From an uncultured Pseudomonadota bacterium (lineage in GTDB: Bacteria > Myxococcota_A > UBA796 > SXON01), in the NCBI GenBank assembly GCA_903921785.1, contig CAIXRH010000025.1, forward strand, positions 55,069-119,068: a stretch of 64,000 nucleotides of DNA. Reading direction: 5' to 3'. Below, piece after piece: positions 12,679 to 55,258 of the stretch. The first letter of the stretch is position 1. The number at the start of each line of letters is the position of its first letter. The notes below the pieces were generated by a model, which was given only the letters and a program-made list of their open reading frames with translations, did no database searches and was not told where the DNA came from. Both the position numbers and the translations under genes were made by a program.

Positions 12679-13461
12679 TCAGACGGAGACGCCGAAGTCC
12701 CGGAGCGCGGCGTTGAGCGACACCTTCTTGTCGGTGGACGGCTGCCGCTTGCCGATGATGAGCGCGCACGGCATCCCGTACTCGCCCGCGGGGAACTTCT
12801 TCGTACGAACGCCGGGGACCACCACACTGCGCGCCGGCACCCGACCGACGTGGCGCACCTCTTCGGGCCCGGTGACGTCGAGGATCGGCGTGGACGACGT
12901 GAGCACCACGTTCGCCCCGAGCACCGCCTCCTCTTCCACGATCACGCCCTCCACCACGATGCAGCGGCTGCCGATGAAGGCGCCGTCTTCGATGATGACC
13001 GGCCGCGCGCCCGCCGGCTCCAGCACGCCGCCGATGCCCACCCCGCCGCTGAGGTGCACGTTCCGGCCGATCTGGGCGCAGCTCCCCACGGTGGCCCAGG
13101 TGTCCACCATCGTGCCGGCGCCGACCCAGGCCCCGATGTTCACGTAGCCGGGCATCACGATCGCCCCGCGCTCCACGAACGCTCCGTACCGCACGGTCCC
13201 CGGAGGCACGACCCGCACGCCCGCCGCCGCGAGCCCCTTCTTCAGCGGGATCTTGTCGTAGAACTCGAAGGGGCCGACCTCCATCGTCTCCATCGGGGAG
13301 ATGCGGAAGAACCCGAGGATCGCCTCCTTCACCCAGGCGTGCACGATCCACTCGCCGCCCACCTTCTCGGCCACGCGGAGCTCGCCCCGGTCGAGGCGGG
13401 CGACGGCCTCGCGGATGGCATCGGGATCGGCGGCGGCGACACGGGCGGCGAGGTCGGACAT
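12679..13461 (-). CDS. dapD: 2,3,4,5-tetrahydropyridine-2,6-dicarboxylate N-succinyltransferase
   Basis: Hexapeptide-repeat left-handed beta-helix region (GAIVMPGYVNIGAWVGAGTMVDTWATVGSCAQIGRNVHLSGGVGIGGVLEP) with a DapD-type N-terminal helical domain. Confidence 0.9.
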   Translation of the reverse strand: MSDLAARVAAADPDAIREAVARLDRGELRVAEKVGGEWIVHAWVKEAILGFFRISPMETMEVGPFEFYDKIPLKKGLAAAGVRVVPPGTVRYGAFVERGAIVMPGYVNIGAWVGAGTMVDTWATVGSCAQIGRNVHLSGGVGIGGVLEPAGARPVIIEDGAFIGSRCIVVEGVIVEEEAVLGANVVLTSSTPILDVTGPEEVRHVGRVPARSVVVPGVRTKKFPAGEYGMPCALIIGKRQPSTDKKVSLNAALRDFGVSV

Positions 13462-13522
13462 CCGGCCCGCTTATCCACGATGCCCGCGACCGGATACCTT
13501 CGCCACCCTCCCTGGAGCAGCC

Positions 13523-14917
13523 ATGTCCATCCTGATCAAGAACGGCCGGATCGTCACCGCGGTGGACGACTACGTCGCCGACCTCTTCATCGACGGCGAG
13601 CAGATCACCGCCATCGGCAAGAACCTCCAGGTCCACGCCGACCGGGTGTTCGACGCCGCGGGCAAGCTGGTCATCCCCGGCGGCATCGACCCGCACACCC
13701 ACATGGACATGCCGTTCGGCGGCACCACCAGCGCCGACGATTTCGACACCGGCACGGTCGCCGCGGCGTTCGGCGGCACCACCACGATCGTCGACTTCGC
13801 GATCCAGCAGAAGGGCCACAGCACGCTCGACGGCCTGGAGGTCTGGCACCAGAAGGCCGAGGGGAAGGCCACGATCGACTACGGCTTCCACATGATCGTC
13901 ACCGATATGGCGGTGGAGCGGCTGGCGGAGATGGAGAAGCTCGCGGACGCGGGCGTCACCTCCTACAAGATGTTCATGGCCTACCCTGGCGTTCTCTACG
14001 TGGATGACGGTACGCTCTACCGCGCCTTCCGGCAGGCCGGCGAGAACCGCACCCGCATCTGCATGCATGCGGAGAACGGCATCGTCATCGACGAGATCAT
14101 CCGCGAGGCCCGCGAGGCCGGCCACACCGAGCCCGCCTGGCACGCCAAGACCCGCCCCACCCGCATGGAAGCCGAGGGCGTGCACCGCGCCATCGCCATC
14201 GCCGAGGTGGCCAAGGTGCCGCTCTACATCGTGCACCTGAGCAGCCATGACGCCCTGGAGCAGGTGCGCATCGGCCGAAACCGCGGGGTGGACGTCCAGG
14301 CCGAGACCTGCCCCCAGTACCTCACCCTCGACGACTCCTGGTACGACCGTCCGAACTTCGAGGGTGCGAAGTGGGTCATGACCCCGGCGCTGCGCGAGAA
14401 GTGGAACCAGGGCTCGCTCTGGCAGGGCCTCCGGTTCGGGGACCTCAGCGCGGTCGCCACCGACCACTGCCCCTTCTGCTTCAACGGCCAGAAGGAGCTC
14501 GGGCGCGACTCGTTCACCAAGATCCCCAACGGCGCGCCGGGCGTGGAGAACCGGGTGAACGTGCTCTACGACGCCGGCGTGCGCACCGGCCGCATCTCGC
14601 TCAACCGCTGGGTGGAGCTCACCAGCACCTCGGCCGCCAAGACCTTCGGTATGTTCCCCAAGAAGGGCACGATCGCCGTGGGCTCCGACGCCGACGTGGT
14701 GATCTTCGATCCGAACGAGACCCGCGTCGTGAGCATCCACGACAAGCGCACCCACCACATGCGCGTGGACTACTCGGCCTACGAGGGCCACGAGATCACC
14801 GGGTGGTCGCAGACCGTCATCAGCCGCGGCCGGGTGATCGTGCACAACAGCCAGCTCGAGACCCACAAGGGCGGCAAGTTCATCAAGCGCGCGCGGGTGG
14901 GCGACCTCCTGCGCTAG
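13523..14917 (+). CDS. dihydropyrimidinase / D-hydantoinase
   Basis: MSILIKNGRIVT..., metal-binding GGIDPHTHMDMPF, carbamylated-Lys context SYKMFMAY, and VHLSS...ATDHCPF; cyclic amidohydrolase family. ATG 13523 chosen inside track ORF 13301-14917. Confidence 0.9.
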   Translation: MSILIKNGRIVTAVDDYVADLFIDGEQITAIGKNLQVHADRVFDAAGKLVIPGGIDPHTHMDMPFGGTTSADDFDTGTVAAAFGGTTTIVDFAIQQKGHSTLDGLEVWHQKAEGKATIDYGFHMIVTDMAVERLAEMEKLADAGVTSYKMFMAYPGVLYVDDGTLYRAFRQAGENRTRICMHAENGIVIDEIIREAREAGHTEPAWHAKTRPTRMEAEGVHRAIAIAEVAKVPLYIVHLSSHDALEQVRIGRNRGVDVQAETCPQYLTLDDSWYDRPNFEGAKWVMTPALREKWNQGSLWQGLRFGDLSAVATDHCPFCFNGQKELGRDSFTKIPNGAPGVENRVNVLYDAGVRTGRISLNRWVELTSTSAAKTFGMFPKKGTIAVGSDADVVIFDPNETRVVSIHDKRTHHMRVDYSAYEGHEITGWSQTVISRGRVIVHNSQLETHKGGKFIKRARVGDLLR

Positions 14918-15026
14918 TCCGGGAATCCTCGTAGGGGCAGCCGGGGCGCCAGACCAGGTCGGCGCTCCGATACCACGTCCGGCGGCGCCGCCGGGCGGCT
15001 CGGGCCGCCCGGCGCGAACGGTCGGC
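14842..15026. repeat. direct repeat copy A (last 76 nt of the dihydropyrimidinase CDS plus 109 nt of 3' flank)
   Basis: Aligns without gaps to 26842-27026 with 6 mismatches (14920, 14932, 14957, 14974, 14975, 15001). Contains a GC hairpin GCCGGGCGGC-tcgg-GCCGCCCGGC at 14990-15013. Confidence 0.95.
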
Positions 15027-15031
15027 GTGAA

Positions 15032-17452
15032 CTACAACGTAAGGATGTAGGCCATCAGATCGTCGATTTCTGCGGGCGAGAGGTGGCTGGTGCCCCCGTT
15101 GGTGTCGGGGACTCCGTTCCGCTCGTTGAACCCGCGCTCCCCCGGATGGAGCGCCGGATGACCGGGGGTGCAGATCGCCTCGCGGAGCCCCTGCGCCCGC
15201 CCGTCGTGGTACATCCGCGGGGCCCGATCCCAGAGGCCGCGTAGCGGGGTCGCGTTGATCCGTAGGTTGCGAACGTCGTCGCAGGCGGCGGGGTCCTCGG
15301 CGCACGCCGCCTCTCCACAGAGCGCCTCGCAGGTGTCCTGCTCGACCATCGGGAAGATGCTCTGGAAGCCCACGGACACCAGATCGAGGTTCATCCCGGC
15401 ATCACTGTAGTTTGGGGTCACGACAGGGTCCATGCGCACGGCGACCCCGGCGGGGTTCACGTCCGTAGACACTGCGAAGCCCGGCGCCGGGTGACAGCTC
15501 ACGCAGTTCGAGGTCGTGCTCTCGAAGAGGGCCCTGCCGCGGAGCGCGGTGGGGTCATCAGGGTCGTTGGGGTTCGGGAGCAGCGCCGTGTTCTGCAGCA
15601 GGAACACACCCAGGGACTTGGTGACGCCGTCCAGATCGAGTGGAATCGGAGAGCGAGCGCCGGTGAGCAGGTCCTCGGCGTACACCCCATCGCCGAAGGA
15701 CTCCGTACGCCCGATCACCGCCTGGGCACGCTCGAGGTAGAAGGCCTCCCGGGTCAGCGACGAGGTCGGCCTCGGATGCGCGAGCGCGGAGCCGCGCACA
15801 GCCGTGATGCCGTCCGGAGTGTAGGCGTTCGGCTCGTCAGCACACTCGGGCGGAGGGTTCGACGCGCAGTCGGCCGGCGCTCCGTCGGGGAACAGGGTGT
15901 AGTCCTCACAGCAGAAGTTCTCGACACGCGCGAACTCGTTGATGACCGGCCGGAAGTTGGTCTGGTCCATCGCGCCCTCGAAGAACCATGGGCGGGTATC
16001 CGCAGCGCCCCGCGCGGCCATCGTCATCCGGCTGTTCTGCCCACCATACACAGAGAGGGGCATCCCGAAGACCTTGTTGATGTTGCCCTGCTCCCGGTGG
16101 CAGCTCGCGCACACCTGGTCCCCGTCCACGCTGAACTTCGACGTGACGAAGTTGTACAGCTCACCAATCTCCGCGTCAGTGGCGGGGAAGTCCCCATCTG
16201 ACACATCGCCTACAACGATGTTTTCCTCCACGGTGCCGTCGGCCTCGTACACGCCCAGCGTCTCCCCGAGGCGGTGCGCGATCACCACCCGGCCGTCGTC
16301 CGTGACCGCGATCCCGTGCGGGTTGTGGCCCGCCGTGTCGAACACCTTCCCGGCGGTGAGCGCGCCCGTCGTGACGTCCACATCGAAGCGCTGAAACTGG
16401 TTGGAGCCGGAGTAGGTCACCCAGGCGCCGTCCCCGTCGGCGACCACCTGCTCCGGCAACGCCCCGCCCACGATCCAGGTGTCCGCCGGGGGCAGCAGCT
16501 CCCCGTAGAGTGCGGCGTCGGCCGGATCGATGTCCCGGAAGTCCTTGCAGCAGATCGTGTCCGAGGTGTAGCGGTGGACCACGGTGCCCGTCTCCGGGTC
16601 GATGACCGCGATCTCGTTCTGGCTGTCCTGGAAGTTGCTGTTCGGCGTCCCATCTCCGGGCTGTCCATCGCCATCCGTGTCCGGCCCGGCAAACGGCAGG
16701 TGGTTGCTTGAGGCCGAGAGGGTCGGGACCACCAGCCACTCCCCCACGAACGCCAGACCGTTGGGCGGCGCGCGCAGGTCCACGGTCTGGACAAGGTCAC
16801 GGCTTTCGGTGTCGATGATCGACACGGTGAGCCCCGTGAGGTTGGCCACCGCCACGAAGCGGCCGTCGGGGCTCATGGCGAGATCCCGGGGGTTGACTCC
16901 CACCTTCACGCCCCCCACCTCCGTCGCCCGCCCATCAGCGTCGAACTCCCAGATGCGCACCTGATCGAGCCACCGGTTGGTCACCCAGAGCGTGGATCCG
17001 TCGGGAGAGAAGACCGCCTCGGTGGCATAGAAGTCGGTCGGAATCCGGTCGACCTCCACGTTGCTCTCCGAGTCGACCACCGACATCCAGTTCGAGAACC
17101 GATTGAGCACGAGGACCGACCGGCCATCGGGGCTGAGGACCAACCCCTGCGGGTTGGAGCCCACCTCCACCCGGTCGATCACGGAGCCGTCCGCGAGGTC
17201 GATCACGGCTACCCGATCGTCGGGAACGTCGGAGGTGCCCGGAAGTGAGACCCACGCCCGGTCGCCCTGGGTGATCACCTCCTGCGGCTTGGACCGGTGC
17301 GGCTGGGGCGCCCACTGGGGGTCGTCCTTGGGGAAGGGATTGGCGTACGGGGTGAGCGAGGCGGCGGTCCAATCGGGCGTGCACCCGATCCCCAGCGTCA
17401 TGAGAAGGCCGCCGGCGACGCCGCAGCCCAGGCCGAGTTGCGATGGCTTCAT
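15032..17452 (-). CDS. lipoprotein: YncE-like beta-propeller fused to a di-haem cytochrome c peroxidase/MauG-like domain
   Basis: Propeller repeats VLSPDGRSVLVLN, VFSPDGSTLWVTN, AMSPDGRFVAVAN. Two CXXCH motifs: CASCH (16097-16111) and CVSCH (15491-15505). ATG 17452 gives MKPSQLGLGCGVAGGLLMTLGIGC and overlaps the upstream stop as ATGA. Confidence 0.8.
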   Translation of the reverse strand: MKPSQLGLGCGVAGGLLMTLGIGCTPDWTAASLTPYANPFPKDDPQWAPQPHRSKPQEVITQGDRAWVSLPGTSDVPDDRVAVIDLADGSVIDRVEVGSNPQGLVLSPDGRSVLVLNRFSNWMSVVDSESNVEVDRIPTDFYATEAVFSPDGSTLWVTNRWLDQVRIWEFDADGRATEVGGVKVGVNPRDLAMSPDGRFVAVANLTGLTVSIIDTESRDLVQTVDLRAPPNGLAFVGEWLVVPTLSASSNHLPFAGPDTDGDGQPGDGTPNSNFQDSQNEIAVIDPETGTVVHRYTSDTICCKDFRDIDPADAALYGELLPPADTWIVGGALPEQVVADGDGAWVTYSGSNQFQRFDVDVTTGALTAGKVFDTAGHNPHGIAVTDDGRVVIAHRLGETLGVYEADGTVEENIVVGDVSDGDFPATDAEIGELYNFVTSKFSVDGDQVCASCHREQGNINKVFGMPLSVYGGQNSRMTMAARGAADTRPWFFEGAMDQTNFRPVINEFARVENFCCEDYTLFPDGAPADCASNPPPECADEPNAYTPDGITAVRGSALAHPRPTSSLTREAFYLERAQAVIGRTESFGDGVYAEDLLTGARSPIPLDLDGVTKSLGVFLLQNTALLPNPNDPDDPTALRGRALFESTTSNCVSCHPAPGFAVSTDVNPAGVAVRMDPVVTPNYSDAGMNLDLVSVGFQSIFPMVEQDTCEALCGEAACAEDPAACDDVRNLRINATPLRGLWDRAPRMYHDGRAQGLREAICTPGHPALHPGERGFNERNGVPDTNGGTSHLSPAEIDDLMAYILTL

Positions 17453-17967
17453 GGTCCAGTGTCCTCCGGGCAGATGGGATCGGCGCCGGTGTGAATGCAC
17501 GGGTCGTCGTCGACCAGCGTCCCGGAGGCGGACACGACGCAGTACCGGCTGACATCCTCCACGCGCACCACGAGGTCGGCGCCACGCCCCTCGTAGTAAC
17601 TCAGGTAGTTCGCGGTGAAGAAGATCAGAATCTCGTCGCTCAGCCCGTCCACGAACGCGACCCCGGGCTGTTTTCCGTCGATCCGGTCGGCGCCCTCCAC
17701 CACCATGGACATGGCCGCGTCCCCCGCCGGAAAGTCGCGCTCCGAGGTGCCCACGTACGCGGAGACCAGCAGGAACCCCTGAAAGCCCATCTGCAGCTCG
17801 AGCTCCGCGTTCTCACCGAAGGGAGCGAAGCCGCCCTCCTTGGTGAAGCTACCGAGTTCGCAGGTGAATTCCGACTTGTCGGCGCCGTCGCCCCCGCCGG
17901 TGTCGGGTGAACCGCTGGCGCACGCCGCCGCACCGAGCGCGAACGCCACCCGCCTAGAAGATCGCAT
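17449..17967 (-). CDS. hypothetical lipoprotein
   Basis: ATG 17967 gives MRSSRRVAFALGAAACASGS (lipobox AAAC). 172 aa, four further Cys, no family recognised. Overlaps the DUF3570 gene end by 14 nt. Confidence 0.55.
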   Translation of the reverse strand: MRSSRRVAFALGAAACASGSPDTGGGDGADKSEFTCELGSFTKEGGFAPFGENAELELQMGFQGFLLVSAYVGTSERDFPAGDAAMSMVVEGADRIDGKQPGVAFVDGLSDEILIFFTANYLSYYEGRGADLVVRVEDVSRYCVVSASGTLVDDDPCIHTGADPICPEDTGP

Positions 17968-19150
17968 CGATCCCCCCACCGAGCAGCCAGCCATCCCGAC
18001 TGGTCTCGTCGGGGAACACGTCGTGCCGCAGCCATAGGCGATCGACGTGGGCGGAGAGGCTCGCCCGGCTCGCCGGACCGAGCCCGTACAACGATCCCTC
18101 CACCGAGAGGCCCCCCTGGCCAGAGGTGAGGCCGCCCAGATCGAGGTCGCCGGTGCGCCACTCGGACGCGCTCGCGTAGCCCGGCCCCCAGAACGAGGCC
18201 GCGCTCTGCCGGGCGTATCGCCCGTTCGCCCGGACCGTGAGATGATCATCGAAGAACGACCGGACCAACGACAGCTGGACCGTGTGCCCCGTCACCTCCC
18301 AGGTGTCGAGGTAATAGCGATATCCGGCGTGCATCGCGGTCGCGACGCCGAACGCCTGTGACACCCTCGCGGCGGCCGCCACCCGCCCCCGCACCCCCGG
18401 GTGCCGTTCGGACAGGCTCAGCCCGTCCTCGAGGCGGACCTTCCGATACGGGCTGGCATCGCAGCCGAGCGCCTCGGCGCACGACTCGAATTCGCCGGTG
18501 GCGAGCAGGGTGGCGGTGGTGCTTCGCCCGAGGATCGTCCGCCCGCCCAGGTCGAGGGTGTGCACGTTGGCGGGCGCGGCGTACGCCGCGTCGTCCGCCC
18601 GCCCCACCGTCTCGAAGCGGGCGTGGTAGTCGGCGCTGAAGGTGACCATCCGCCCGAAGGCGTCGGCCTTCATCCCGACCCCGGCCGAGTGGGACACGAA
18701 GTCGGACTCGGCGCTCCCGGAGTAGGATCCGTGAACAGACCAGTCCGTCGAGGGCGCCCGGTCGATCCCCAGGGTCAACCCGTGGCGGGCCTCGGTGAAC
18801 CGTGTCGCCGAGGAGACCGCGTCGGTGGTGATGTGCGGCGTCGCCCCGCTGATGATGTCGGAGGCCCAGGCCGCGTCCACCGTCCAGCCGTGGGTGAGGT
18901 CGACCTTCACCCCGGCGCCGGGCGCCACGACGGTGATCCATCCGTCCGCGAAGTGGTCCACCCGAGCGTTCGTTTCCGTCACCCGAGGGGCGGGGGCGGC
19001 GGGAGCCGGCGCCACGGGAACCGAGGCCGGATCTCCGGGCGTGGCGGCGGGGGCCTCGCCGGGCGTGGCGGCGGCGGACGCCTCCGGTCCGCCCCCTGGA
19101 GGATCGTCGGCGAACGCCGCGCTGGGCAGGAGGACTAGCGGCAGCCACAT
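17954..19150 (-). CDS. DUF3570-like outer-membrane beta-barrel protein, predicted ApbE flavinylation substrate
   Basis: Signal peptide MWLPLVLLPSAAFA, Pro/Ala linker, alternating-strand pattern and terminal aromatic (..GGIDAIF). Motif DIISGAT (18839-18859) plus DAVSSAT (18803-18823). Directly preceded by a DUF4266-like gene, as is usual for this family. Confidence 0.75.
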   Translation of the reverse strand: MWLPLVLLPSAAFADDPPGGGPEASAAATPGEAPAATPGDPASVPVAPAPAAPAPRVTETNARVDHFADGWITVVAPGAGVKVDLTHGWTVDAAWASDIISGATPHITTDAVSSATRFTEARHGLTLGIDRAPSTDWSVHGSYSGSAESDFVSHSAGVGMKADAFGRMVTFSADYHARFETVGRADDAAYAAPANVHTLDLGGRTILGRSTTATLLATGEFESCAEALGCDASPYRKVRLEDGLSLSERHPGVRGRVAAAARVSQAFGVATAMHAGYRYYLDTWEVTGHTVQLSLVRSFFDDHLTVRANGRYARQSAASFWGPGYASASEWRTGDLDLGGLTSGQGGLSVEGSLYGLGPASRASLSAHVDRLWLRHDVFPDETSRDGWLLGGGIDAIF

Positions 19151-19329
19151 GACGCACCCGACGCGACCGTCGCGCCGGCCATGGCTTCGCGGACCTCGAT
19201 GACATGGGCCATCAGGGCCGCCTCGGAGGGATCGTACGGATCCTGCATGACCCGCGTCATCAGCGTCGCGCGTTCATACGGAGCGAGGTGGACGCAGCCC
19301 GAGAGGAGGATCAGCAAGAGGGGGAACAT
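19135..19329 (-). CDS. DUF4266-like mini-lipoprotein
   Basis: 64 aa, lipobox LLSGC, C-terminus ...GASCGCR resembling the Gly/Cys-rich tail I recall for DUF4266. Sits immediately upstream of the DUF3570-like gene with a 16-nt overlap. Confidence 0.7.
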   Translation of the reverse strand: MFPLLLILLSGCVHLAPYERATLMTRVMQDPYDPSEAALMAHVIEVREAMAGATVASGASCGCR

Positions 19330-19724
19330 CAGGGGGCCTCCGACCAGGCGCGCAGCGCCTCGTAGTCCGGGTCTTCTGTGGACTGCCAGATCACGCCGCC
19401 GAGGTGAGACATCCCCCCAACCGCGGGATCCAACGGTTTACGGGCCAGCTCCGAGGGCGGGAGGCTGAACCCGGCCGCGGAGAGGAAGTTCGCACGGGTC
19501 TCGTCCGCCGTCAGCTCGCCGTCGGCCCAGGCGTCCGCGGGGTCCATCCGATGGCGATGTACCGCGTAGATCTGGAGGGGACGGTCCACGTTGCCGTGGC
19601 AGGAAGGGTTCGCGCAGCTCGCCGTGAGCACCGGCTCCACGGTCTCGACGAACTCGCCGCTGTCGCCGAGATCGAGCTGGACGTCGGTGTTGTCGCCGAG
19701 GCAGCCCAGGAACAGGACGATCAT
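19329..19724 (-). CDS. small lipoprotein with a CX4CH motif
   Basis: ATG 19724 (ATGA overlap with the upstream stop) gives MIVLFLGCLGDN. Motif SCANPSCHG lies at 19596-19616. 131 aa; its N-terminal module resembles the N-terminus of the 932-aa neighbour. Confidence 0.55.
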   Translation of the reverse strand: MIVLFLGCLGDNTDVQLDLGDSGEFVETVEPVLTASCANPSCHGNVDRPLQIYAVHRHRMDPADAWADGELTADETRANFLSAAGFSLPPSELARKPLDPAVGGMSHLGGVIWQSTEDPDYEALRAWSEAP

Positions 19725-22519
19725 GGCGTGCCCCTCCACGTGGCGCCCAGGTCGATCCATCGGGTCACGGTCTGGATCTGATCGGTCGTGAGCCCTCCGT
19801 GGGGCGTGCCGGGCGTGGCGAGGTCGGCGGTGGCCGAGAGCTCCTCGCCGGTGAGCACCTCCACGAGGTGGCTCTGGTAGCTGCTGCCCGGCACCACGTC
19901 TCCCGCGAGGAGGGCCTCGTAGGCTACGTCGAACCACGTGGTTCGGGTGTCGGCGAGGTCGAGGCCGTCGGCCGGCGCACTGCCCGAGTGGCACGCCGCC
20001 GAGGCGCAGGTGGAGCTCAGCAATGGGGAGATGTCCCGGCGCCAATCCACCTCCACACGCGTGGCGTCCCCGGCCTCCGGCGCGGCGATCGGCCGCCGCG
20101 GGTCCTTGTTCTCGTACTGGGCCAGCGAGATCGAGGCGGTGCTCATGATGTCCGGCTCCACGAAGACGTCGGCGGGATCTCCGCTGAGCGAGCCGTGGCA
20201 CACGGAGCAGGAAAACGTGTAATAATGTCCGTCTGTCGCCGATACCCCCTGGGTGAGGGTCTGCCCGGGCGCCACGTAGTACCAACGATTGTAGTTCAGG
20301 TCGATCGCGCGGCCGGCGCTGTCGAGCGGCTGGAGCCGGAACGACACCCCCGCGGGGACGGAGCCCTGGAGCGAACCGTCCGCGAAGATCGGCAGCTCCG
20401 CGAGCACCCGCGCCGGCGGGTACACCCCGATCCCCGTGCTGGTGGCCCCGGGCGCGGAGTAGGGCAGGTCCGCCGCCGGCACCGGCTGCCGCTCCGCCGG
20501 AGTGAGCGGCAGTGCTTCCACGAGGCGGACGCCGACCACCCCGTAGGCCACGGGCTTGGCGCCGGTTGGTGGCAGGTCCAGGAGCAGCGAGGCGATGTTC
20601 CCGAGACCGAGCACGCGCACCAGCCCCCGCGGCTCCGCGGGATCCCACGACAGCTCCTCCACGACGTTGGAGGGACGCCGGACGTACACCGGCTCGGGAT
20701 CATAGGTCGACATCCCCGCTTCGCCCGCGACCAGCACCTCGCGGGAGGCGATGGAGGGCCCCTTGCCCCGCACCGACTCCGCCAGGGTCAGGCGCTCGAT
20801 CGAGAAGATGGGCGCGGCGTCGGGGTCCGCGAGGTCGAGGGTCCCGGCCGCACGCGCGACGAGAATCCGCCCGTCCGCCTCGGGGCTGGGGTCGCGGTAG
20901 AGGCTCGCGGTGACCCCCTTCGCGGCCGATTCTTCGTCGAGCCTGGCGATGGGGTCCGCGTAGAAGGGGATCGAGGCGTCGTCCTCCCCCCCGGCCGGAA
21001 TCTCCGGCCCGAAGTTCCGCTCCACGACGGCGAGCCGCCCGCCTACCCACACGTTGTCGACGTCGGAGAGGATGACCGGGTAGCGACCGTCCGGCAGCTC
21101 TCGCATGTCGTAGAAGACGTTTTCCGGTGCGGTGATCCCGAAGTGCGGGTGGTACTCCGTCCGGAGTCCTGGAGGGAAGCGGAAGATGTGGGCCCGCCTC
21201 TTGGAGGGGATGGCCTCGCGGAGCGCGGTGAAGCCCACCTGCCCTCCGTTCTCGGGGCCCACCACGAAGAAGACCGGCTTCCGCTCGATCTGAGGTGACC
21301 ACGTGCGGCGGGTGAGCTGGGAGCCATCGACGGCCACCGAGTAGAGCTCCGCGTCGAGCCGGACGCCATCGTCGGCGAGCACCCCCGCACGGGTGGAGGA
21401 GAACCAGAGCTGCCCATCGGGCGACCAGGTCGGATCACGATCCGCGCCTGAGGCCTCGTCCGTGACCTGCGTGGCCACGCGCGTGGTGAGGTCGAGCACC
21501 CAGAGGTGGTGTCCAGCGTCGTCGGGCCCGCGCATCGCGAACGCGAGCGCGGTGCCCTGGGGGTTCACCGCGGGCTCCCGGATGTCCGCCGGCCACGTGT
21601 GCAGCGCCGCGGTGAGGTTCTCTGTCGTCCCGTCCGCGTGGGCCCACCAAAGGTCGCTCCCGGGGACGTAGGCGTCGAGATCGAAGGTGTCCTCGGACTC
21701 CACCGGCCCTCGGACGTACACGAAGCCGTCGGTCTGCGGCTCGCAGGGCACGTCGAGTCGAGCCTGCCGTTCCTCGCAGGCCCAGGCCTCGACCGCCTGG
21801 ACCGCCGCGTCGTCGGGACCCGCGAAGAAGGCCTCGTTGCCCCCCTTGTGCACGATGCCCCCTGAGCCCAGCCGCAGTCCCTTCCGGAGCAGCCGGGACT
21901 GGGTAACGTCGCCGTCGAGGGACACCATCGCGAGCGCAGTGGCGTAGTTGGCGCGGGTGGCGCTCCGGGAGAACTCCCCTTGCAAGCCACCGTTGAAGCG
22001 GTAGGGCAGCGCCGCGGTGAGCCCGTGGCAGTTCGCGGTCATGCATCCGCGCGCGACGAGCTGGGGCTGCACGGTGTCGGCGAAGAGCTGCTCCCGATCG
22101 TCGAGCTCCGGGACGTTCTCACCACCGCCGCTCTCGCCCCCGATCCAGTCCCGAATCGCCTGGTAAGCCGGGTCGTCGGTCGAGGTGAAACACGCGCCGC
22201 CGTAGTGCGGGCTCCCACCCAGCTCCTGGGGGAGCGGGCGGGTGAGGACGGACGAGAATTCGGGCGCCTCGTCGGTGACGATGAACCGCTTCACCGTGCG
22301 ATAAGCTTCTTCCGGGTCAGAGAAGTCGCCGCCTTCATCCAACTGGAGTTCCAGCCGTTTCCAGTCGATGGTGAGCTCGGGCTCCGCGCCGGGAGCCACG
22401 CCGTGGCACGCGGTGTCGGCGCATCGGGCGTGGAGCACAGGAACGACGTCGGCGTCGAACCGAGCCCGGCCATCCAGCTCGGGGGTGCAGGCCATCAGGT
22501 GGACGAGCAGAGTGAGCAT
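19721..22519 (-). CDS. large lipoprotein with TolB/PD40-like beta-propeller repeats, three CX4CH motifs and one CXXCH motif
   Basis: Lipobox HLMAC. CADTACH (22403-22423), CMTANCH (22025-22045), CSVCH (20195-20209), CASAACH (19988-20008). PD40-like DRDPTWSPDGQLWFSSTRAG and AVNPQGTALAFAMRG. Confidence 0.75.
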   Translation of the reverse strand: MLTLLVHLMACTPELDGRARFDADVVPVLHARCADTACHGVAPGAEPELTIDWKRLELQLDEGGDFSDPEEAYRTVKRFIVTDEAPEFSSVLTRPLPQELGGSPHYGGACFTSTDDPAYQAIRDWIGGESGGGENVPELDDREQLFADTVQPQLVARGCMTANCHGLTAALPYRFNGGLQGEFSRSATRANYATALAMVSLDGDVTQSRLLRKGLRLGSGGIVHKGGNEAFFAGPDDAAVQAVEAWACEERQARLDVPCEPQTDGFVYVRGPVESEDTFDLDAYVPGSDLWWAHADGTTENLTAALHTWPADIREPAVNPQGTALAFAMRGPDDAGHHLWVLDLTTRVATQVTDEASGADRDPTWSPDGQLWFSSTRAGVLADDGVRLDAELYSVAVDGSQLTRRTWSPQIERKPVFFVVGPENGGQVGFTALREAIPSKRRAHIFRFPPGLRTEYHPHFGITAPENVFYDMRELPDGRYPVILSDVDNVWVGGRLAVVERNFGPEIPAGGEDDASIPFYADPIARLDEESAAKGVTASLYRDPSPEADGRILVARAAGTLDLADPDAAPIFSIERLTLAESVRGKGPSIASREVLVAGEAGMSTYDPEPVYVRRPSNVVEELSWDPAEPRGLVRVLGLGNIASLLLDLPPTGAKPVAYGVVGVRLVEALPLTPAERQPVPAADLPYSAPGATSTGIGVYPPARVLAELPIFADGSLQGSVPAGVSFRLQPLDSAGRAIDLNYNRWYYVAPGQTLTQGVSATDGHYYTFSCSVCHGSLSGDPADVFVEPDIMSTASISLAQYENKDPRRPIAAPEAGDATRVEVDWRRDISPLLSSTCASAACHSGSAPADGLDLADTRTTWFDVAYEALLAGDVVPGSSYQSHLVEVLTGEELSATADLATPGTPHGGLTTDQIQTVTRWIDLGATWRGTP

Positions 22520-22640: not shown

Positions 22641-23600
22641 TCAGGGTCGCGCGTCGTTGCGCCACGCCACGACCGGGAGCCCGGGCGTGCTGCGGACCCG
22701 CCCGAGCTCGTCGATGGTGAGCGCCTCGACGCCCAGGCGCTCGGCGAGCGCGATACCCGCCACCGGTCCGTCAACCATCAGGGCGGTGGACAAAGCGTCG
22801 GCTCGCGTCGCGTCGGGAGAGACCACGGTGGCGGCGTGCAACCCGCGAGCGGGCATCCCCGTGTGCGGGTCGAGGATGTGGTGGTACCGCACGCCGCCCA
22901 GCTCGAAGTAACGCTCGTAGTCGCCGCTGGTGGACACCGAGGCGTCGGTGATCGCGAGCACGGCGAGCGTCTCGTTGGGGCCAGCCATCGGGTCCCGGAC
23001 CCCCACGCGCCACGGAGCCGCGGCGCCGTCCCGGTGGCCGGCCGCGTACACCTGCCCGCCGGCGGAGAGCATGAAGTCCACCCGACCGAGCGCCCGCAGA
23101 CGCCGCTGGGCCAGGTCCAACGCCCAACCCTTCGCGATGCCGCCGAGCCCGATGCGCATCCCCGCCACGGGCAGGCGCACGGTCCCCTCCCCAAGCTCCA
23201 CCTTGCGGTAGTCGATGAGGGGGAGCCGGGCTCGGATGGCGGCCGGGTCCGGTACCGCGGGCACATCGAAGTTCCACAACCCCCAGAGCGCCGCCCAGGT
23301 CAGGTCGAAGGCGCCGTCGGTCTCCCGGCCCAGCTCCACGGCGCGGCGGACGAGCTCGTAGGTGGGCGGCGGCACCGCCATCGCCGCACCGCCAGCGTGC
23401 GCGTTGACCTCGGCGAGAGGGGAGCCCTCCCGCCATTCGTTGGCGTCGTGCTCGACCTGGCGAAAAACGGTGAAGACCTCCGCCGCATCCGCCCCCGCCC
23501 GGGCGTCGTCTTCGAGGATCACCTCGATCCTCGTCGACATCGCCTGGATCTCGAAGGAACGGAGGCCGGCCGACGCCAGTGCGATCCACAGGAGAGTCAT
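22641..23600 (-). CDS. apbE: FAD:protein FMN transferase (ApbE family)
   Basis: Motifs GLGGIAKGWALD, STSGDYERYF, HHILDPHTGMP, ADALSTAL. ATG 23600 overlaps the upstream stop (ATGA). Signal-like N-terminus MTLLWIALASAG. Confidence 0.9.
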   Translation of the reverse strand: MTLLWIALASAGLRSFEIQAMSTRIEVILEDDARAGADAAEVFTVFRQVEHDANEWREGSPLAEVNAHAGGAAMAVPPPTYELVRRAVELGRETDGAFDLTWAALWGLWNFDVPAVPDPAAIRARLPLIDYRKVELGEGTVRLPVAGMRIGLGGIAKGWALDLAQRRLRALGRVDFMLSAGGQVYAAGHRDGAAAPWRVGVRDPMAGPNETLAVLAITDASVSTSGDYERYFELGGVRYHHILDPHTGMPARGLHAATVVSPDATRADALSTALMVDGPVAGIALAERLGVEALTIDELGRVRSTPGLPVVAWRNDARP

Positions 23601-25090
23601 GGCTGTTCCAGGGTGAGGGCGCGGAGCTCGAGCTCGACCTGCCGCAAGTCGGTCGCGCTCAACTCGCCGTCGTGGCGATGGCGCAGGCGTCCCGCCCCGT
23701 CCAGCACCCATGTGACCGGGAGCGCCGCCGGTGCGAGCTGCCCGACGAAGGCGGCCCTCGAATCGAGGGCCACCGGGAGCCTCAGCCTCAGTCGCGAGAC
23801 GATCCCTCGAGCCGGCGTCGGGGTCGCGTCCACGCTCACGGCCAGGAACCGGAACCCCTCGGGGGCGAGACGGGCGGCCAGGGCATCGAGGCGGGGCAGC
23901 TCGGCGAGGCAGGGCGAGCACCAGCTTGCCCACACGTTGAGCACACCGGGCGCGCCCAGGAGCGCTTGCTCCGTGACCGCGCGCCCATCCAGGCCGGGGA
24001 TCGAGAAAGAGGGGAGGCTGGAGGGCTCGGGGGACGCGGCGGACGCGGTGGGAACCAGGGCCCGGAGCAGGGTGCGCCCGAGGCTCGCCGTCGGCTCACA
24101 CTCCGACACCGTGGCCGTGCGGTCGCCCGCCCCGTAACGAACGATCACGCCGTGCTTCTCCCCGGTCGAAAACAGGTTCCCGCCCGCGAAGAGGACGTCG
24201 TCTGCATGGCCCCAGGCTGCGTGGAGATGGTCCGGTGTGAGCGGGAGCTCCGGGCGCAGCCAGCCGTCGTCCTGGAGGAGCGCCACCGTGCCGAAGTTGC
24301 CGGCGACTGCCACGTCGGCGCCCGGCGCCGTCCAGACGCCGGCGAGCGGCTGACCCAGCTCGGTGGCGTCCACCTCGCTCCAGCTCAGGCCGTCCCAGTG
24401 GGTGACCAGGGGCGTGCCCAGGCCGCCCACCGCCCACACGTCATCGGCGGCGCGCCCCCGCACGGTCAGCAGGTGCCCGCCCCCGGCGTCCACAGGCACG
24501 AGCACCCCGTCGCCGTCGAGGTGCCAGGCCACACCATCCCCCACGAACCACCCATCCCATACCTTGAAGACTGCCCCGGCCGCATCCTGGAGCACGGGGC
24601 TCCAAGTGCCGGCGGTTCTCCGCCAGATCTCCCCGGTGGAGCCGTTCTCGTCGAAGGTCCCGCCCACGGCCCAGACATCCGCACCATCCATGTACACGCC
24701 GAAGAGCGTAGCGTCCGTCGGCACGTCCTCCCGGGTGCGCCCCGCCGGCGTTGCGTGGACGATGCGCCCCGCCTCGCCCACGGCGTACCACTCCCCAGCG
24801 CCGTCCCCGTGGATCCACCAAAGCGTCTTGTCCGCGACCGCCCGCTCCACGCAGAGCGACTCCCCGTCGTAACGCGCGATCACCCCCTCCGAACCGCCGA
24901 TCTGCCCGCCGGAGAACAAGACGTCGCCTCCGTCGTCGGTCGCCGAGAGCAGCGCGCCCCCCGGGATGTCCTCGGCGAGCACCGAGAAGTGGGGCCCGTC
25001 GCCCGTGTCCGTTGCGGTGGAGCTGGAGGTGCACGAGGCGAGTAGCCAGAGGAGCATGGGTCCATCCAGTGAGGATCGCGGCGGAATCAT
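23597..25090 (-). CDS. lipoprotein: propeller-like repeat domain fused to a TlpA/ResA-type thioredoxin domain
   Basis: C-terminal LNVWASWCSPCLAELP (WCxxC redoxin). The N-terminal ~330 aa carry repeated W-x-VG motifs (WYAVGEAG, VWAVGGTF, VWAVGGLG). Lipobox LLASC after Met12, so start 25057 is possible. Confidence 0.8.
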   Translation of the reverse strand: MIPPRSSLDGPMLLWLLASCTSSSTATDTGDGPHFSVLAEDIPGGALLSATDDGGDVLFSGGQIGGSEGVIARYDGESLCVERAVADKTLWWIHGDGAGEWYAVGEAGRIVHATPAGRTREDVPTDATLFGVYMDGADVWAVGGTFDENGSTGEIWRRTAGTWSPVLQDAAGAVFKVWDGWFVGDGVAWHLDGDGVLVPVDAGGGHLLTVRGRAADDVWAVGGLGTPLVTHWDGLSWSEVDATELGQPLAGVWTAPGADVAVAGNFGTVALLQDDGWLRPELPLTPDHLHAAWGHADDVLFAGGNLFSTGEKHGVIVRYGAGDRTATVSECEPTASLGRTLLRALVPTASAASPEPSSLPSFSIPGLDGRAVTEQALLGAPGVLNVWASWCSPCLAELPRLDALAARLAPEGFRFLAVSVDATPTPARGIVSRLRLRLPVALDSRAAFVGQLAPAALPVTWVLDGAGRLRHRHDGELSATDLRQVELELRALTLEQP

Positions 25091-26700
25091 CGGGTCACCG
25101 CGTGGCGGCCGGGGACCACATCATCAAGCACGGTCGTGCCCCCTTCGAACCACTCCACCGTGAGCCGATCGGCGCTCGGATAGCCCCCCAACCCCACGAA
25201 GAGCTCGGCGGCCGATGAGGAGCTGACGGTGCCGGGGAGCATCCATTGGTACGTGGTCCGGCCCCCGACCTCCGCGACGAGGCGGGCGCCGATCCCCTGT
25301 CGGTTCCCCGGTCCTGCGTCGAGGGTCAGGACGACATCCCCCCCGCAGCCGCCCGAGAGCTTCCAGGTCTTAAGATAGTATTTTCCGGTCGTGACCAGGT
25401 CGGGCTGCCCGTCGCGGTCGAGGTCACCCACCACCACCGAGCGGCCCCGCGCCGGGTCGCCGAAGCCCCACCCGTCGGTGCGCTCAAAGCCGCCCTCGCA
25501 GTCCCCGCGAAGGATGACATCTGGCTGATTCTCAGCGTCTATCCATCCTTGTTGGAGCCCCGCCACGGCGTCGGTGTTGGTGCCGGACTGGCCGAACATC
25601 AGGATGAGGTCCTGGCAGCGGTCGCCGTCCACGTCGAGGAAGGTGGTCCCCCACCCGGTCATGGTGCTCGGGTCGGGCGGCACCAGCGAACCATTGGCCT
25701 CCGTCGCGTCAACAAAATGGCCAGAACCGAGGTTCAGGAGGTAGTTCGGTCCGCCTACATCGGAGATGTACAGGTCTGGGAGCCCATCGTTGTCCCCGTC
25801 GCCGACGGCCACGCCCATCGAGAACATCGCCAGCTCGCAGCCGCAGTCGGCTGCGCGCGCGAAGTGTCCCGCGCCGTCGTTGAGCCAGAGGTGGTTCGGA
25901 TCCAGGAAGGGGCCGGCGTCGTTGGCCTCGTAGACGTCGAGGTCCCCGTCGCCCTCGGCGTCGAACCAACGCCCCTCGAAGGTGTGCCCGTGAACCTCCC
26001 GAGTCGGGAGCTCTCCGAGGGAGAAGTGGCCGGCTCCGTCGTTGAAGTACAGGCGCTCCGGCTGCCCCTCCATAGTGCCGGCGATGACCTCCGCCGCCGA
26101 GACATTGGCGATCCCGGTCGCAAGCCACGCGTCGAGGTCACCGTCGGCGTCCGCGTCCGCCAGTTCTGCGCTCAGGGTGATGCCCAGGTTCGGCTCCGCG
26201 AGCGGCTCGAACGTGAGGTTGCCGGCCCCGTCCCCACGCAAGACTCCGTCGGACGCCAGCGAGCGGCCGAGGAGCCCGTCGAGGTCGCCGTCGGCGTCGA
26301 GGTCCGCGAGGGCGACCGCGTGGGCGCCGCCGAGCACGGCTCCGGCGTCGTCGAGGAGCGGATGGTCCACCGTGAGTCGGCCCGCTCCGTCGTTGAGCAA
26401 GACAATGGCCCCGGCTCCGCCCGCAAACACGGCGTCCAACCAGCCATCCCCGTTCAGGTCACCTAGGGCGACACCGGTCACGCCGCGCTCGTCTGCCCAC
26501 TCCAGCGCCTCGATCTCCGCGCCTTCCCACGCGTCCACCCCCGTGATGCTCACCGGCACGCAGTCAACCGGTGACGCGGAGTCCCCGGGCGCCACCAGCG
26601 CTCCCCCAGACGTGCCAGGGCCCATGCAGCCCACAAGGCAGAACGCGGCGCTCAACCTGCGGCCGCCCCACGACCGCGCGCCGGGGCGGCCCGACATCAT
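25087..26700 (-). CDS. FG-GAP/VCBS repeat lipoprotein with ASPIC/UnbV-like C-terminus (CRTAC1 family)
   Basis: Repeats DLNGDGWLD, DLDADGDLD, DADADGDLD, DGDNDGLPD, DLDRDGQPD; C-terminal GARLVAEVGGRTTYQWM...LTVEWFEGG. Start moved to ATGATG at 26700 (MMSGRPG...AAFCLVGC lipobox). The track start at 26886 lies inside repeat copy B. Confidence 0.8.
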   Translation of the reverse strand: MMSGRPGARSWGGRRLSAAFCLVGCMGPGTSGGALVAPGDSASPVDCVPVSITGVDAWEGAEIEALEWADERGVTGVALGDLNGDGWLDAVFAGGAGAIVLLNDGAGRLTVDHPLLDDAGAVLGGAHAVALADLDADGDLDGLLGRSLASDGVLRGDGAGNLTFEPLAEPNLGITLSAELADADADGDLDAWLATGIANVSAAEVIAGTMEGQPERLYFNDGAGHFSLGELPTREVHGHTFEGRWFDAEGDGDLDVYEANDAGPFLDPNHLWLNDGAGHFARAADCGCELAMFSMGVAVGDGDNDGLPDLYISDVGGPNYLLNLGSGHFVDATEANGSLVPPDPSTMTGWGTTFLDVDGDRCQDLILMFGQSGTNTDAVAGLQQGWIDAENQPDVILRGDCEGGFERTDGWGFGDPARGRSVVVGDLDRDGQPDLVTTGKYYLKTWKLSGGCGGDVVLTLDAGPGNRQGIGARLVAEVGGRTTYQWMLPGTVSSSSAAELFVGLGGYPSADRLTVEWFEGGTTVLDDVVPGRHAVTR

Positions 26701-26841
26701 CGCCGCCCCAGATGCTCGCGCGACGAATACATTGCCCCGATATACCTGGCGATCGGCCACCGCACCATCGGTCGCCGGACCGATGGCGCGGCGCGGTCGT
26801 CCGCCAGGCTCGCCAGCGGCGCGCCGGGCGTGGAGAATCGC

Positions 26842-27026
26842 GCACAACAGCCAGCTCGAGACCCACAAGGGCGGCAAGTTCATCAAGCGCGCGCGGGTGG
26901 GCGACCTCCTGCGCTAGTCAGGGAATCCTCGCAGGGGCAGCCGGGGCGCCAGACCACGTCGGCGCTCCGATACTCCGTCCGGCGGCGCCGCCGGGCGGCT
27001 GGGGCCGCCCGGCGCGAACGGTCGGC
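26842..27026. repeat. direct repeat copy B (orphan copy of the dihydropyrimidinase 3' end and hairpin)
   Basis: ~97% identical to 14842-15026. It still reads ..HNSQLETHKGGKFIKRARVGDLLR-stop, but there is no hydantoinase sequence upstream of 26837. Hairpin copy at 26990-27013. Confidence 0.95.
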
Positions 27027-53827: not shown

Positions 53828-55258
53828 TCAGCGGGCGGCGCCCTGCACCGACCCGATCCACTGCTCCACCGCGCCCGCCTCGGAGGGAATGTGGGCGCTG
53901 AGGTTGTGGTAGCCGTCCTCGGTGACCACGATGTCGTCCTCGATGCGCACGCCGATGCCGCGGTACTTCGCGGGCACCGTCTGGTCGTCTGGCTGGAAGT
54001 AGAGCCCCGGCTCCACGGTGAAGACCATGCCCGGCAGGAGCTTGCCGTAGCGGTAGGTCTCCTGGCGGGCCTTCGCGCAGTCGTGCACGTCGATCCCCAG
54101 CATGTGGGAGATGTTGTGGAGGCTGTAGCGGCGGTAGAACTGGTTCTCCTGCTGCAGCGCCTCCTCGGCGTTCGGGAGGATGCCGAGGCGCTCCAGGCCG
54201 CGGGCGAGCACGCGCATCGCCTCCTTGTTCGGGGCCATGAAGTCGATCCCCGGGCGCACCATCGCCATGGCCGCCTGCTGCGCCTCCCACACCAGCTCGT
54301 ATATCTCGCGCTGCGCTGGCGAGAACTTGCCAGACACCGGGAGGGTGCGGGTGATGTCCGCCGTGTAGAGCGCGTGGCCTTCCACGCCCGCGTCGAGCAG
54401 GAGGAGCTCGCCCTTGCCGAGCGGGGCGTGGTTGCGCGTCCAGTGGAGGATGCACGCGTTGGCGCCACAGGCGGCGATGGTGCCGTAGCCGACGTCGTTG
54501 CCTTCGCGGCGGGCGCGACCGTAGAAGATCACCTCCACGTCGCGCTCGCTGGTGGCGGTGGGAAGTGCGCGGATCACGTCCTCGAAGCCGCGCTTCGTCG
54601 CGTCGATCACCGTCTGGAGCTCGGCGAGCTCCGCCGCGTCCTTGAGCAGACGCAGCTCCGCGGCCGCGGCGCCGAGCTCGGCGTCGCGCTCCGTGGAAGG
54701 CCGGAGGGCTTCGAGCTGCGGATCGATGCCGGGGAGGATGCGGGCGTCGGGGAGACCGCGCACCACCTCGTCCAGCTCGCGGAGGCTGCGCGCTTCATCG
54801 ACCCCGAAGCGCGGCGGGGTGTGCTCGAGGCCGAGGCGCCGGCCGACCCAGAGCTCGCCCTTGTTGCGGTCCTTGAAGAAGGTGATGTCGGTGCGGTTCA
54901 CCGGCTCCACGAAGAGGACGGACCGGTGGCTGCCGTCGGCTTGCGGGCAGAGCCACAGCACGCAGTCGGCCTCGTGGTTCCCGGTGAGCCACGCGAAGTC
55001 GCTGCCGGGGCGGAAGGCGTAGTGGGTGTCGTTGGCGCGCACCTTCTCGTGGCCGGTGCCGATGAACAGATGCTCGCCGGGAAAGCGGGCGCCGAGGCGG
55101 CTCCGGCGCTCCGCGAAGGCCGCCGCGTTCGCCACCGGAGGCGGCGGCGCGGGATCGAACGCCTTCCACCCCGAGAGCAGGAACTGCTCGAGGTTGGCCG
55201 GGATGTCGGAGTCGTGGGAAGCACGGGCGGGAGCAGGCGCGGTTTCTTCGGCGGACAT
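53828..55258 (-). CDS. pepP: Xaa-Pro aminopeptidase (M24B)
   Basis: Metal ligand contexts LLLLDAGVEGHALYTADITRT, HNISHMLGIDVHD, VFTVEPGLY, GVRIEDDIVVT. ATG 55258 (MSAEETAP). Confidence 0.9.
   Translation of the reverse strand: MSAEETAPAPARASHDSDIPANLEQFLLSGWKAFDPAPPPPVANAAAFAERRSRLGARFPGEHLFIGTGHEKVRANDTHYAFRPGSDFAWLTGNHEADCVLWLCPQADGSHRSVLFVEPVNRTDITFFKDRNKGELWVGRRLGLEHTPPRFGVDEARSLRELDEVVRGLPDARILPGIDPQLEALRPSTERDAELGAAAAELRLLKDAAELAELQTVIDATKRGFEDVIRALPTATSERDVEVIFYGRARREGNDVGYGTIAACGANACILHWTRNHAPLGKGELLLLDAGVEGHALYTADITRTLPVSGKFSPAQREIYELVWEAQQAAMAMVRPGIDFMAPNKEAMRVLARGLERLGILPNAEEALQQENQFYRRYSLHNISHMLGIDVHDCAKARQETYRYGKLLPGMVFTVEPGLYFQPDDQTVPAKYRGIGVRIEDDIVVTEDGYHNLSAHIPSEAGAVEQWIGSVQGAAR

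Follow-up and report, generated by a model that had tools for sequence, protein, structure and literature searches.

Can a single protein carry two covalently bound flavins a dozen residues apart? The question is raised by a 64,000-nucleotide (nt) stretch of DNA from an uncultured Myxococcota-like bacterium (contig CAIXRH010000025.1, forward-strand positions 55,069 to 119,068), whose full length we call the window. One of its genes encodes a protein of the family DUF3570 in which a canonical site for flavinylation by ApbE, the FAD:protein FMN transferase (FMN, flavin mononucleotide; FAD, flavin adenine dinucleotide), is followed closely by a second, similar site. We find that the two motifs are a family-wide pair of FMN attachment sites, and thus largely already explained. 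We consider it probable that the ApbE encoded at 22641-23600 modifies both threonines, T104 and T116, to give a di-FMN protein.

Two acceptor motifs in a DUF3570 protein

The gene (17954-19150, minus strand) encodes 398 amino acids (aa), with a signal peptide, a Pro/Ala-rich N-terminal linker and a C terminus reading ...DAIF. A sequence-only reading of this DNA had placed the protein in DUF3570, and the Pfam family PF12094 is indeed matched above its gathering score (E=8.7e-19, 68 bits versus a cut-off of 25). DUF3570 was the only Pfam match at E<=0.01, and no FMN_bind domain was found in the 398 residues. Codon by codon, the minus strand at 18803-18859 translates as DIISGATPHITTDAVSSAT. This segment contains motif 1, D98-I-I-S-G-A-T104 (DIISGAT, 18839-18859), and motif 2, D110-A-V-S-S-A-T116 (DAVSSAT, 18803-18823), with residue numbers and coordinates exactly as the sequence-only reading had given them; both were also located in the family alignment described below. 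The acceptor codons are 18839-18841 (T104) and 18803-18805 (T116), and both sites are carried on a single tryptic peptide, VDLTHGWTVDAAWASDIISGATPHITTDAVSSATR.

According to the literature, ApbE is periplasmic, uses FAD as donor and leaves FMN as a phosphoester on the last Ser/Thr hydroxyl of D-x-x-[S/T]-x-A-[S/T]. The motif used in NqrC/RnfG-type proteins is D-x-x-[S/T]-G-A-[S/T], and these seven residues by themselves are enough for ApbE (review PMC12052999). Motif 1 matches this pattern at all positions (Asp at -6, Ser/Thr at -3, Gly at -2, Ala at -1 and the acceptor), and T104 is its predicted FMN acceptor. Motif 2 has Ser114 in place of the canonical Gly at -2; T116 is the predicted second acceptor. 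The likeness to NqrB, NqrC and RnfG drawn by the sequence-only reading therefore stands for the ApbE recognition motif and the chemistry of modification, but it does not extend to the fold, as the protein has no FMN_bind domain.

To put these matches against chance, we made 200,000 composition-preserving shuffles of the DUF3570 protein. The strict pattern D..[ST]GA[ST] appeared in 1.4% of them, a single loose D..[ST].A[ST] motif in 11%, and two loose motifs within 25 residues in 0.07%. The motif pair exceeds chance.

Conservation of both sites across the family

An exhaustive HMMER search gathered 845 relatives at E<=0.001, from which we aligned 148 representatives with pairwise identity of at most 50% (alignment A2). 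Motif 1 has its Asp in 140 of the 148, Ser/Thr at -3 in 148, Ala in 147 and a Thr or Ser acceptor in 147; the corresponding counts for motif 2 are 145, 141, 144 and 145. Thus, the Asp, Ser/Thr, Ala and acceptor of both motifs are each kept in at least 94% of these relatives, and variation is confined to the "Gly" position, which shows G 93, S 27 and A 22 in motif 1, and S 71, A 36, G 12, T 8, R 8, Q 7 at position 114 of motif 2. The commonest form of motif 2 is SSAT, found in 44/148 representatives and in 67/116 members of a second sample. That sample comprised 117 canonical DUF3570 proteins of ~420 aa, mostly from Myxococcota; both motifs were present in 116 of them, with Gly always in motif 1 and in only three (3/116) in motif 2. 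In a third sample, also of 117 proteins, both acceptors are Ser and the motifs lie 8 residues apart; here SSAS is the usual form of motif 1 (82/109) and TTAS that of motif 2 (92/109). Most family members space the two sites by 8-13 residues. Among the 22 first-round homologs of the window protein, all of which carry PF12094, 17 have SGAT followed by SSAT. Used to scan a genome collection, a narrower alignment (A4) found only 10 loci, all in uncultured genomes.

By these alignments, the DUF3570 consensus is D-x-x-[S/T]-x-A-[S/T], twice, and the lineage of the window protein ordinarily has SGAT and then SSAT. Family alignment was the check that the sequence-only reading had proposed, and both motif columns prove conserved in three independent samples, the 148 representatives and the two sets of 117. 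Its description of motif 2 as a degenerate copy does not survive: the Asp, Ser/Thr, Ala and acceptor columns equal those of motif 1 in conservation, and Ser is the family norm at the remaining position.

The window protein belongs to a subfamily of 80 of the 148 representatives, characterized by a 5-residue linker between the motifs (12-residue motif spacing) and by a cysteine pair, Cys224 and Cys230 (18461-18481, minus strand), in a long 28-residue loop between strands β9 and β10 of the model described below. The two features are coupled, the short linker accompanying the cysteine pair in 75 of the 80, and other subfamilies have Phe or Tyr at 230. The pair could form a redox-active disulfide near the flavins, or it could be simply structural.

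The family itself has been studied before. Méheust et al. (2021; eLife 10:e66878; PMC8238504) found DUF3570 genes beside "orphan" apbE genes and reported two conserved [S/T]GA[S/T] motifs in 228 ApbE-associated DUF3570 proteins. The DUF3570 protein of Chlorobium luteolum (ABB24424.1) was flavinylated by its cognate ApbE, and in gel fluorescence assays of single and double mutants the signal was lost only when both Ser residues had been changed to Ala; the protein was modified although it was recovered from the insoluble pellet (PMC8238504). In a typical cluster, ApbE and a thioredoxin-like protein accompany DUF3570 and DUF4266, the last of these being small, secreted and terminated by CXC; the arrangement was described as a "hybrid thioredoxin-like/flavinylation" system, with DsbD present in 227 clusters and absent in 316 (PMC8238504). 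At the level of the DUF3570 family, the question of single versus double flavinylation has therefore already been answered (Méheust et al. 2021).

Predicted structure and placement of the acceptors

We built an AlphaFold2 model with the 148-sequence alignment and took strand limits from DSSP. The model (mean predicted local distance difference test score, pLDDT, 88.9; predicted template modeling score, pTM, 0.83) has 16 β-strands between residues 56 and 397. Its top Foldseek matches in the PDB are all outer-membrane barrels, namely FadL, Occ/OprD, OmpG, BcsC (TM 0.51), PelB and AlgE (best E 3e-8, TM up to 0.51), and some relatives match Pfam Porin_4 or OMP_b-brl. Connections 2-3, 4-5, 6-7 and so on are of 2-5 residues, and the loops on the opposite side are of 7, 9, 28, 25 and 8 residues. 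This contrast between a short-turn side and a long-loop side is the standard topology of outer-membrane proteins. A C-terminal Phe closes the window protein and 68/148 representatives, and F, L, W or Y stands at the end of ~80%. The modeled protein combines the closed antiparallel arrangement, the even strand number, the short and long loop sides and the C-terminal aromatic residue of outer-membrane β-barrels, and we predict that DUF3570 is a 16-stranded barrel of this kind. A barrel expressed without export would be expected in the insoluble pellet, where the C. luteolum protein was recovered.

The two motifs fall where β3 (89-106) ends and β4 (114-131) begins, bracketing a 7-residue loop. 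By the usual rules for outer-membrane proteins this places the hairpin that carries them among the long loops, where it would nominally be extracellular or fold back into the lumen. In β3 and β4, family members alternate between hydrophobic residues at odd positions and polar ones at even positions; T104 and T116 have even numbers, as do D98, E120 and the invariant R122. Because of this alternation, both threonines probably face the barrel lumen. From the strand boundaries, residue 104 would pair with 116 across the hairpin, the two acceptors standing on opposite strands.

In the model, a Pro/Ala-rich low-complexity insertion, DDPPGGGPEASAAATPGEAPAATPGDPASVPVAPAPAAPAP (residues ~15-55, window ~18986-19108, minus strand), is disordered. 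It separates the signal peptide from the first barrel strand, and we saw it only in the window protein and in a 99%-identical relative (P0001).

One flavin or two

Several points weigh against a di-FMN barrel with its flavins in the lumen. The model is less confident at the motifs than elsewhere (pLDDT ~71-74 at residues 101-120), and the cross-strand pairing and lumen orientation are read from DSSP boundaries and sequence parity. With an extracellular hairpin, two charged FMNs would have to pass through the outer membrane as the barrel assembles, for which we know of no precedent. A scan of the operon and of ten flanking genes found no DsbD. That the published C. luteolum motif pair is the tandem pair seen here is itself something we infer, because the family has only two conserved [ST]xA[ST] sites; no residue numbers are given for the two C. 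luteolum motifs (PMC8238504), and two profile searches of a large protein collection and a cluster look-up returned no Chlorobium entry. The literature holds no experiment on the window protein, nor on a motif in which Ser takes the place of the "Gly". Finally, a Gly-to-Ala change in Klebsiella fumarate reductase lowered flavinylation to ~50% (PMC12052999), so that T116 might be poorly modified.

This last result, together with the Gly of the published consensus, speaks for flavinylation of T104 only, motif 2 being kept for another reason, for example to bind the phosphate or ribityl of the neighboring FMN or to shape the hairpin. Gly is found in motif 2 of just 12/148 and 3/116 members, and the literature consulted contains no direct verification of a non-Gly site. 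However, motif 2 retains the other recognition elements, with the acceptor and the Asp at -6 each present in 145/148. In addition, a whole subfamily has SSAS in most of its first motifs (82/109), which means that a residue other than Gly cannot disqualify a site in DUF3570, and in C. luteolum the signal persisted unless both sites were mutated. We regard modification of T104 alone as unlikely.

A second possibility accepts both sites but allows one FMN per molecule, on T104 or on T116, the first flavin sterically blocking ApbE from an acceptor 12 residues away. The closeness of the acceptors throughout the family would suit it, and the published gel assay would look the same whether a molecule carried two flavins or a single one at either position. 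It would nevertheless be hard to keep both acceptors strictly conserved if either were enough, and proteins with several flavinylation sites are known; we judge this reading very improbable. That the motifs are a chance or purely structural β-hairpin pattern in a protein that is no flavoprotein is barely credible: Ser/Thr/Ala/Gly-rich strands are common in β-barrels and a single loose motif is seen in 11% of the shuffles, but the pair is rare in them, it is conserved family-wide, an ApbE gene stands in the operon, and a family member has been flavinylated experimentally. Double flavinylation remains the reading that we prefer.

The operon around the DUF3570 gene

The DUF3570 gene is part of a block of genes on the minus strand. 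ApbE, a thioredoxin-like protein and DUF4266 are co-located with it on this strand within 6 kb, and stop and start codons overlap in the block. The first gene (25087-26886) encodes an FG-GAP/UnbV_ASPIC (CRTAC1-like) protein (Pfam FG-GAP_3 E=3.4e-29, UnbV_ASPIC). It is followed by a 497-aa lipoprotein (23597-25090) with a C-terminal TlpA/ResA-like redoxin (Pfam Redoxin/AhpC-TSA; NCBIfam ResA/TlpA/DsbE), whose active site W-C-S-P-C occupies residues 390-394 (CSPC from 391). In this protein the redoxin is joined to an N-terminal lipoprotein domain of ~340 residues without a family match. In two of the related loci described below, L004 and L005, the redoxin stands alone (167-175 aa), and in L004 a separate 322-aa gene lies just upstream of it, which suggests that the window redoxin is a gene fusion.

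The 319-aa ApbE (22641-23600) matches the Pfam family with E=1.6e-77; its score against the NCBIfam model FAD:protein FMN transferase ApbE (E=1.1e-32, 113 bits) is under the curated cut-off of 498. Its likely start is the ATG at 23600, in a 4-nt overlap with the stop of the upstream gene. The sequence-only reading had located ApbE 3.5 kb upstream of DUF3570 on the same strand, in agreement with the 3,491 nt that we measure from the end of the ApbE open reading frame (ORF) at 22641 to the DUF3570 start.

DUF4266 (19135-19329; Pfam PF14086, E=7e-10) is a 64-aa lipoprotein with the lipobox LLSGC and a C-terminal Cys-Gly-Cys; C12 and C61-G62-C63 are invariant (alignment A8). We also considered its E-A-M-A-G-A-T (residues 48-54, 19165-19185, minus strand) as a flavinylation site and rejected it: Glu replaces Asp, position -3 is Ala, no orthologue has Ser or Thr there, and the acceptor Thr is missing in 3/7. 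The last 16 nt of the gene (19135-19150, minus strand, ..TCATGTGGCTGCCGCTAG, encoding S-C-G-C-R-stop) hold the DUF3570 start ATG TGG CTG CCG CTA (MWLPL), and the two genes likewise overlap by 16 nt in L002, L004 and L005. This overlap probably explains the conserved MWLP/MRLQ N termini of the subfamily, as CGCN-stop in the other frame gives MRLQL.

On the DUF4266 side of the gene, a 131-aa lipoprotein (19329-19724) has the invariant motif C-A-N-P-x-C-H-G (CX4CH; alignment A7) and no match in Pfam or NCBIfam. On the other side of DUF3570 lies a predicted lipoprotein of ~172 aa without a family match (17449-17967), its start placed by a 14-nt overlap also seen in L001.

Beyond these genes, the same ~25 C-terminal residues, NSQLETHKGGKFIKRARVGDLLR, close two plus-strand ORFs, at 14860-14934 in ORF 13301-14917 (the end of an amidohydrolase gene) and at 26843-26917 in ORF 26042-26917. 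As seen from the ORF list only, these shared ends imply a ~75-bp direct DNA repeat on both sides of the operon.

Hydrazine-synthase-like neighbors

The two large genes of the block encode heme lipoproteins. The first, a predicted lipoprotein of 932 aa (19721-22519), is a hydrazine synthase (HZS) α homolog (Pfam HZS_alpha, PD40; NCBIfam hydrazine_alpha) composed of a β-propeller, an HZS_alpha middle domain and a C-terminal heme domain. It contains three heme-type motifs of the unusual form CX4CH (CADTACH, CMTANCH and CASAACH) and one CXXCH (CSVCH), all four invariant in five orthologues, as is the CANPSCH of the 131-aa lipoprotein. The NCBIfam model "CxxxxCH/CxxCH domain c-type cytochrome" is weakly matched. 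A five-orthologue profile of this protein matched PDB 5c2v_A (HZS α) with E=1.9e-15 over ~110 residues of the C-terminal heme domain. The second (15032-17452), of ~806 aa, has a YVTN-type β-propeller and a di-heme domain (2 x CXXCH), and is a homolog of fused HZS βγ: its five-orthologue profile matched 5c2v_B (HZS β) with 5.6e-19 and 5c2v_C (HZS γ) with 8.7e-6. We rejected the idea that these are true hydrazine synthase genes, as NCBIfam scores of 30 and 55 bits fall far under the equivalog cut-offs of 800 and 560, which leaves domain-level homology only. The flanking heme lipoproteins are thus remote homologs of hydrazine synthase.

We compared this context in the window and in four related loci, L001, L002, L004 and L005 (39-64% identity). 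All five share the order ~930-aa gene, ~131-147-aa gene, DUF4266, DUF3570, [~180-aa gene], ~800-aa gene, the ~180-aa gene (176-182 aa) keeping its position in L001, L004 and L005 and missing from L002. DUF3570 and DUF4266 thus lie between the HZS α-like and βγ-like genes in 5/5 loci; a redoxin and/or ApbE adjoins in the window and in 2/4 related loci. Two canonical Myxococcota DUF3570 loci instead have a ~150-aa gene, an SH3_3 gene, DUF4266 and DUF3570.

A proposed mechanism

In the mechanism that we consider most likely, both threonines would be flavinylated in the periplasm on the unfolded chain, before insertion of the barrel, because the 7-residue motif is enough for ApbE and the insoluble C. 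luteolum protein was modified. Once the barrel had inserted in the outer membrane, both flavins would lie in its lumen, since T104 and T116 share their parity with the polar, lumen-facing D98, E120 and R122. The acceptors would stand opposite each other on β3 and β4, two residues below the 7-residue hairpin loop, and the flavins side by side inside the barrel mouth, forming one two-flavin redox center. Electrons would most likely be exchanged with the thiol partners of the operon, the TlpA-like redoxin (CSPC) and the CGC of DUF4266. In the subfamily of the window protein they may also pass to or from the two flanking hydrazine-synthase-like heme lipoproteins. Taken as a whole, a lumen with two covalent FMNs that serves as a flavin-based counterpart of porin-cytochrome conduits, coupling thiol partners to HZS-like heme lipoproteins, is a tentative and rather doubtful proposal.

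If true, it would link flavinylation with the HZS-like systems. Whatever its fate, placement of DUF3570 between HZS-like α and βγ genes in all five loci provides a testable partner set for both orphan systems, and a predicted outer-membrane barrel that carries the two acceptors on a single hairpin would be the first structural hypothesis for the role of DUF3570. Since the second site has Ser, Ala or Thr more often than Gly, motif searches that demand Gly will under-count the sites of ApbE substrates. For the flavinylation itself the window protein adds little, being one more DUF3570 from an uncultured Myxococcota-like bacterium in a family whose double flavinylation is already published. Of some novelty here, from prediction and from five loci, are the placement of the sites in an outer-membrane barrel and the hydrazine-synthase-like neighborhood.

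Comparison with known systems

The closest known systems are the C. luteolum protein and the clusters of Méheust et al., with which the window shares the Pfam family, the two acceptor motifs, and the company of ApbE, a thioredoxin-like protein and a DUF4266 with C-terminal CXC; it resembles the 316 clusters without an adjacent DsbD. Unlike C. luteolum, the window has Thr acceptors rather than Ser, and Ser in motif 2 where the published motif has Gly. It differs from the published clusters in the 12-residue spacing, in Cys224/Cys230, and in the insertion of two large HZS-like heme lipoproteins and two small lipoproteins. DUF3570 is not called a β-barrel or an outer-membrane protein in that work (PMC8238504).

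With the FMN_bind sites of NqrC, NqrB, RnfG, NosR and PplA, the window protein shares an exact match in motif 1, a Thr acceptor and the phosphoester chemistry. In contrast to those proteins, it has no FMN_bind domain, a predicted β-barrel fold, two sites 12 residues apart on one hairpin, and a second motif that departs at Gly.

Porin-cytochrome conduits (MtrB with MtrA and MtrC; Geobacter Pcc) are outer-membrane β-barrels encoded with redox lipoproteins or cytochromes. The operon may work like these, in that a barrel is accompanied by redox lipoproteins and its cofactors are predicted to lie inside; no homology was detected between the two. Their cofactors, however, sit on a separate multiheme protein threaded through a 26-strand barrel, whereas here two FMNs would be covalently attached to a 16-strand barrel. 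The sulfhydryl oxidase Erv2p has a C-terminal Cys-Gly-Cys shuttle and non-covalent FAD. By analogy, a flexible C-terminal CGC such as the invariant one that ends DUF4266 could shuttle electrons between dithiol/disulfide and flavin, although the two proteins have no homology, use different flavin chemistry and work in different compartments.

Non-anammox gene clusters with HZS α and fused βγ homologs and an FG-GAP/CRTAC1 gene, to which no function has been assigned, have been described recently (Genome Biol Evol 2025, evaf244; PMC12758564). The window shares with them the position of the α-like gene, which precedes the βγ-like one, and with their clade III an FG-GAP/ASPIC gene upstream of α (PMC12758564). 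The likeness is remote, as only the α C-terminal heme domain and the β propeller score well. ApbE, DUF4266 and thioredoxin are not mentioned for those clusters (PMC12758564), whereas in the window these genes, together with DUF3570, lie between or upstream of the α-like and βγ-like genes.

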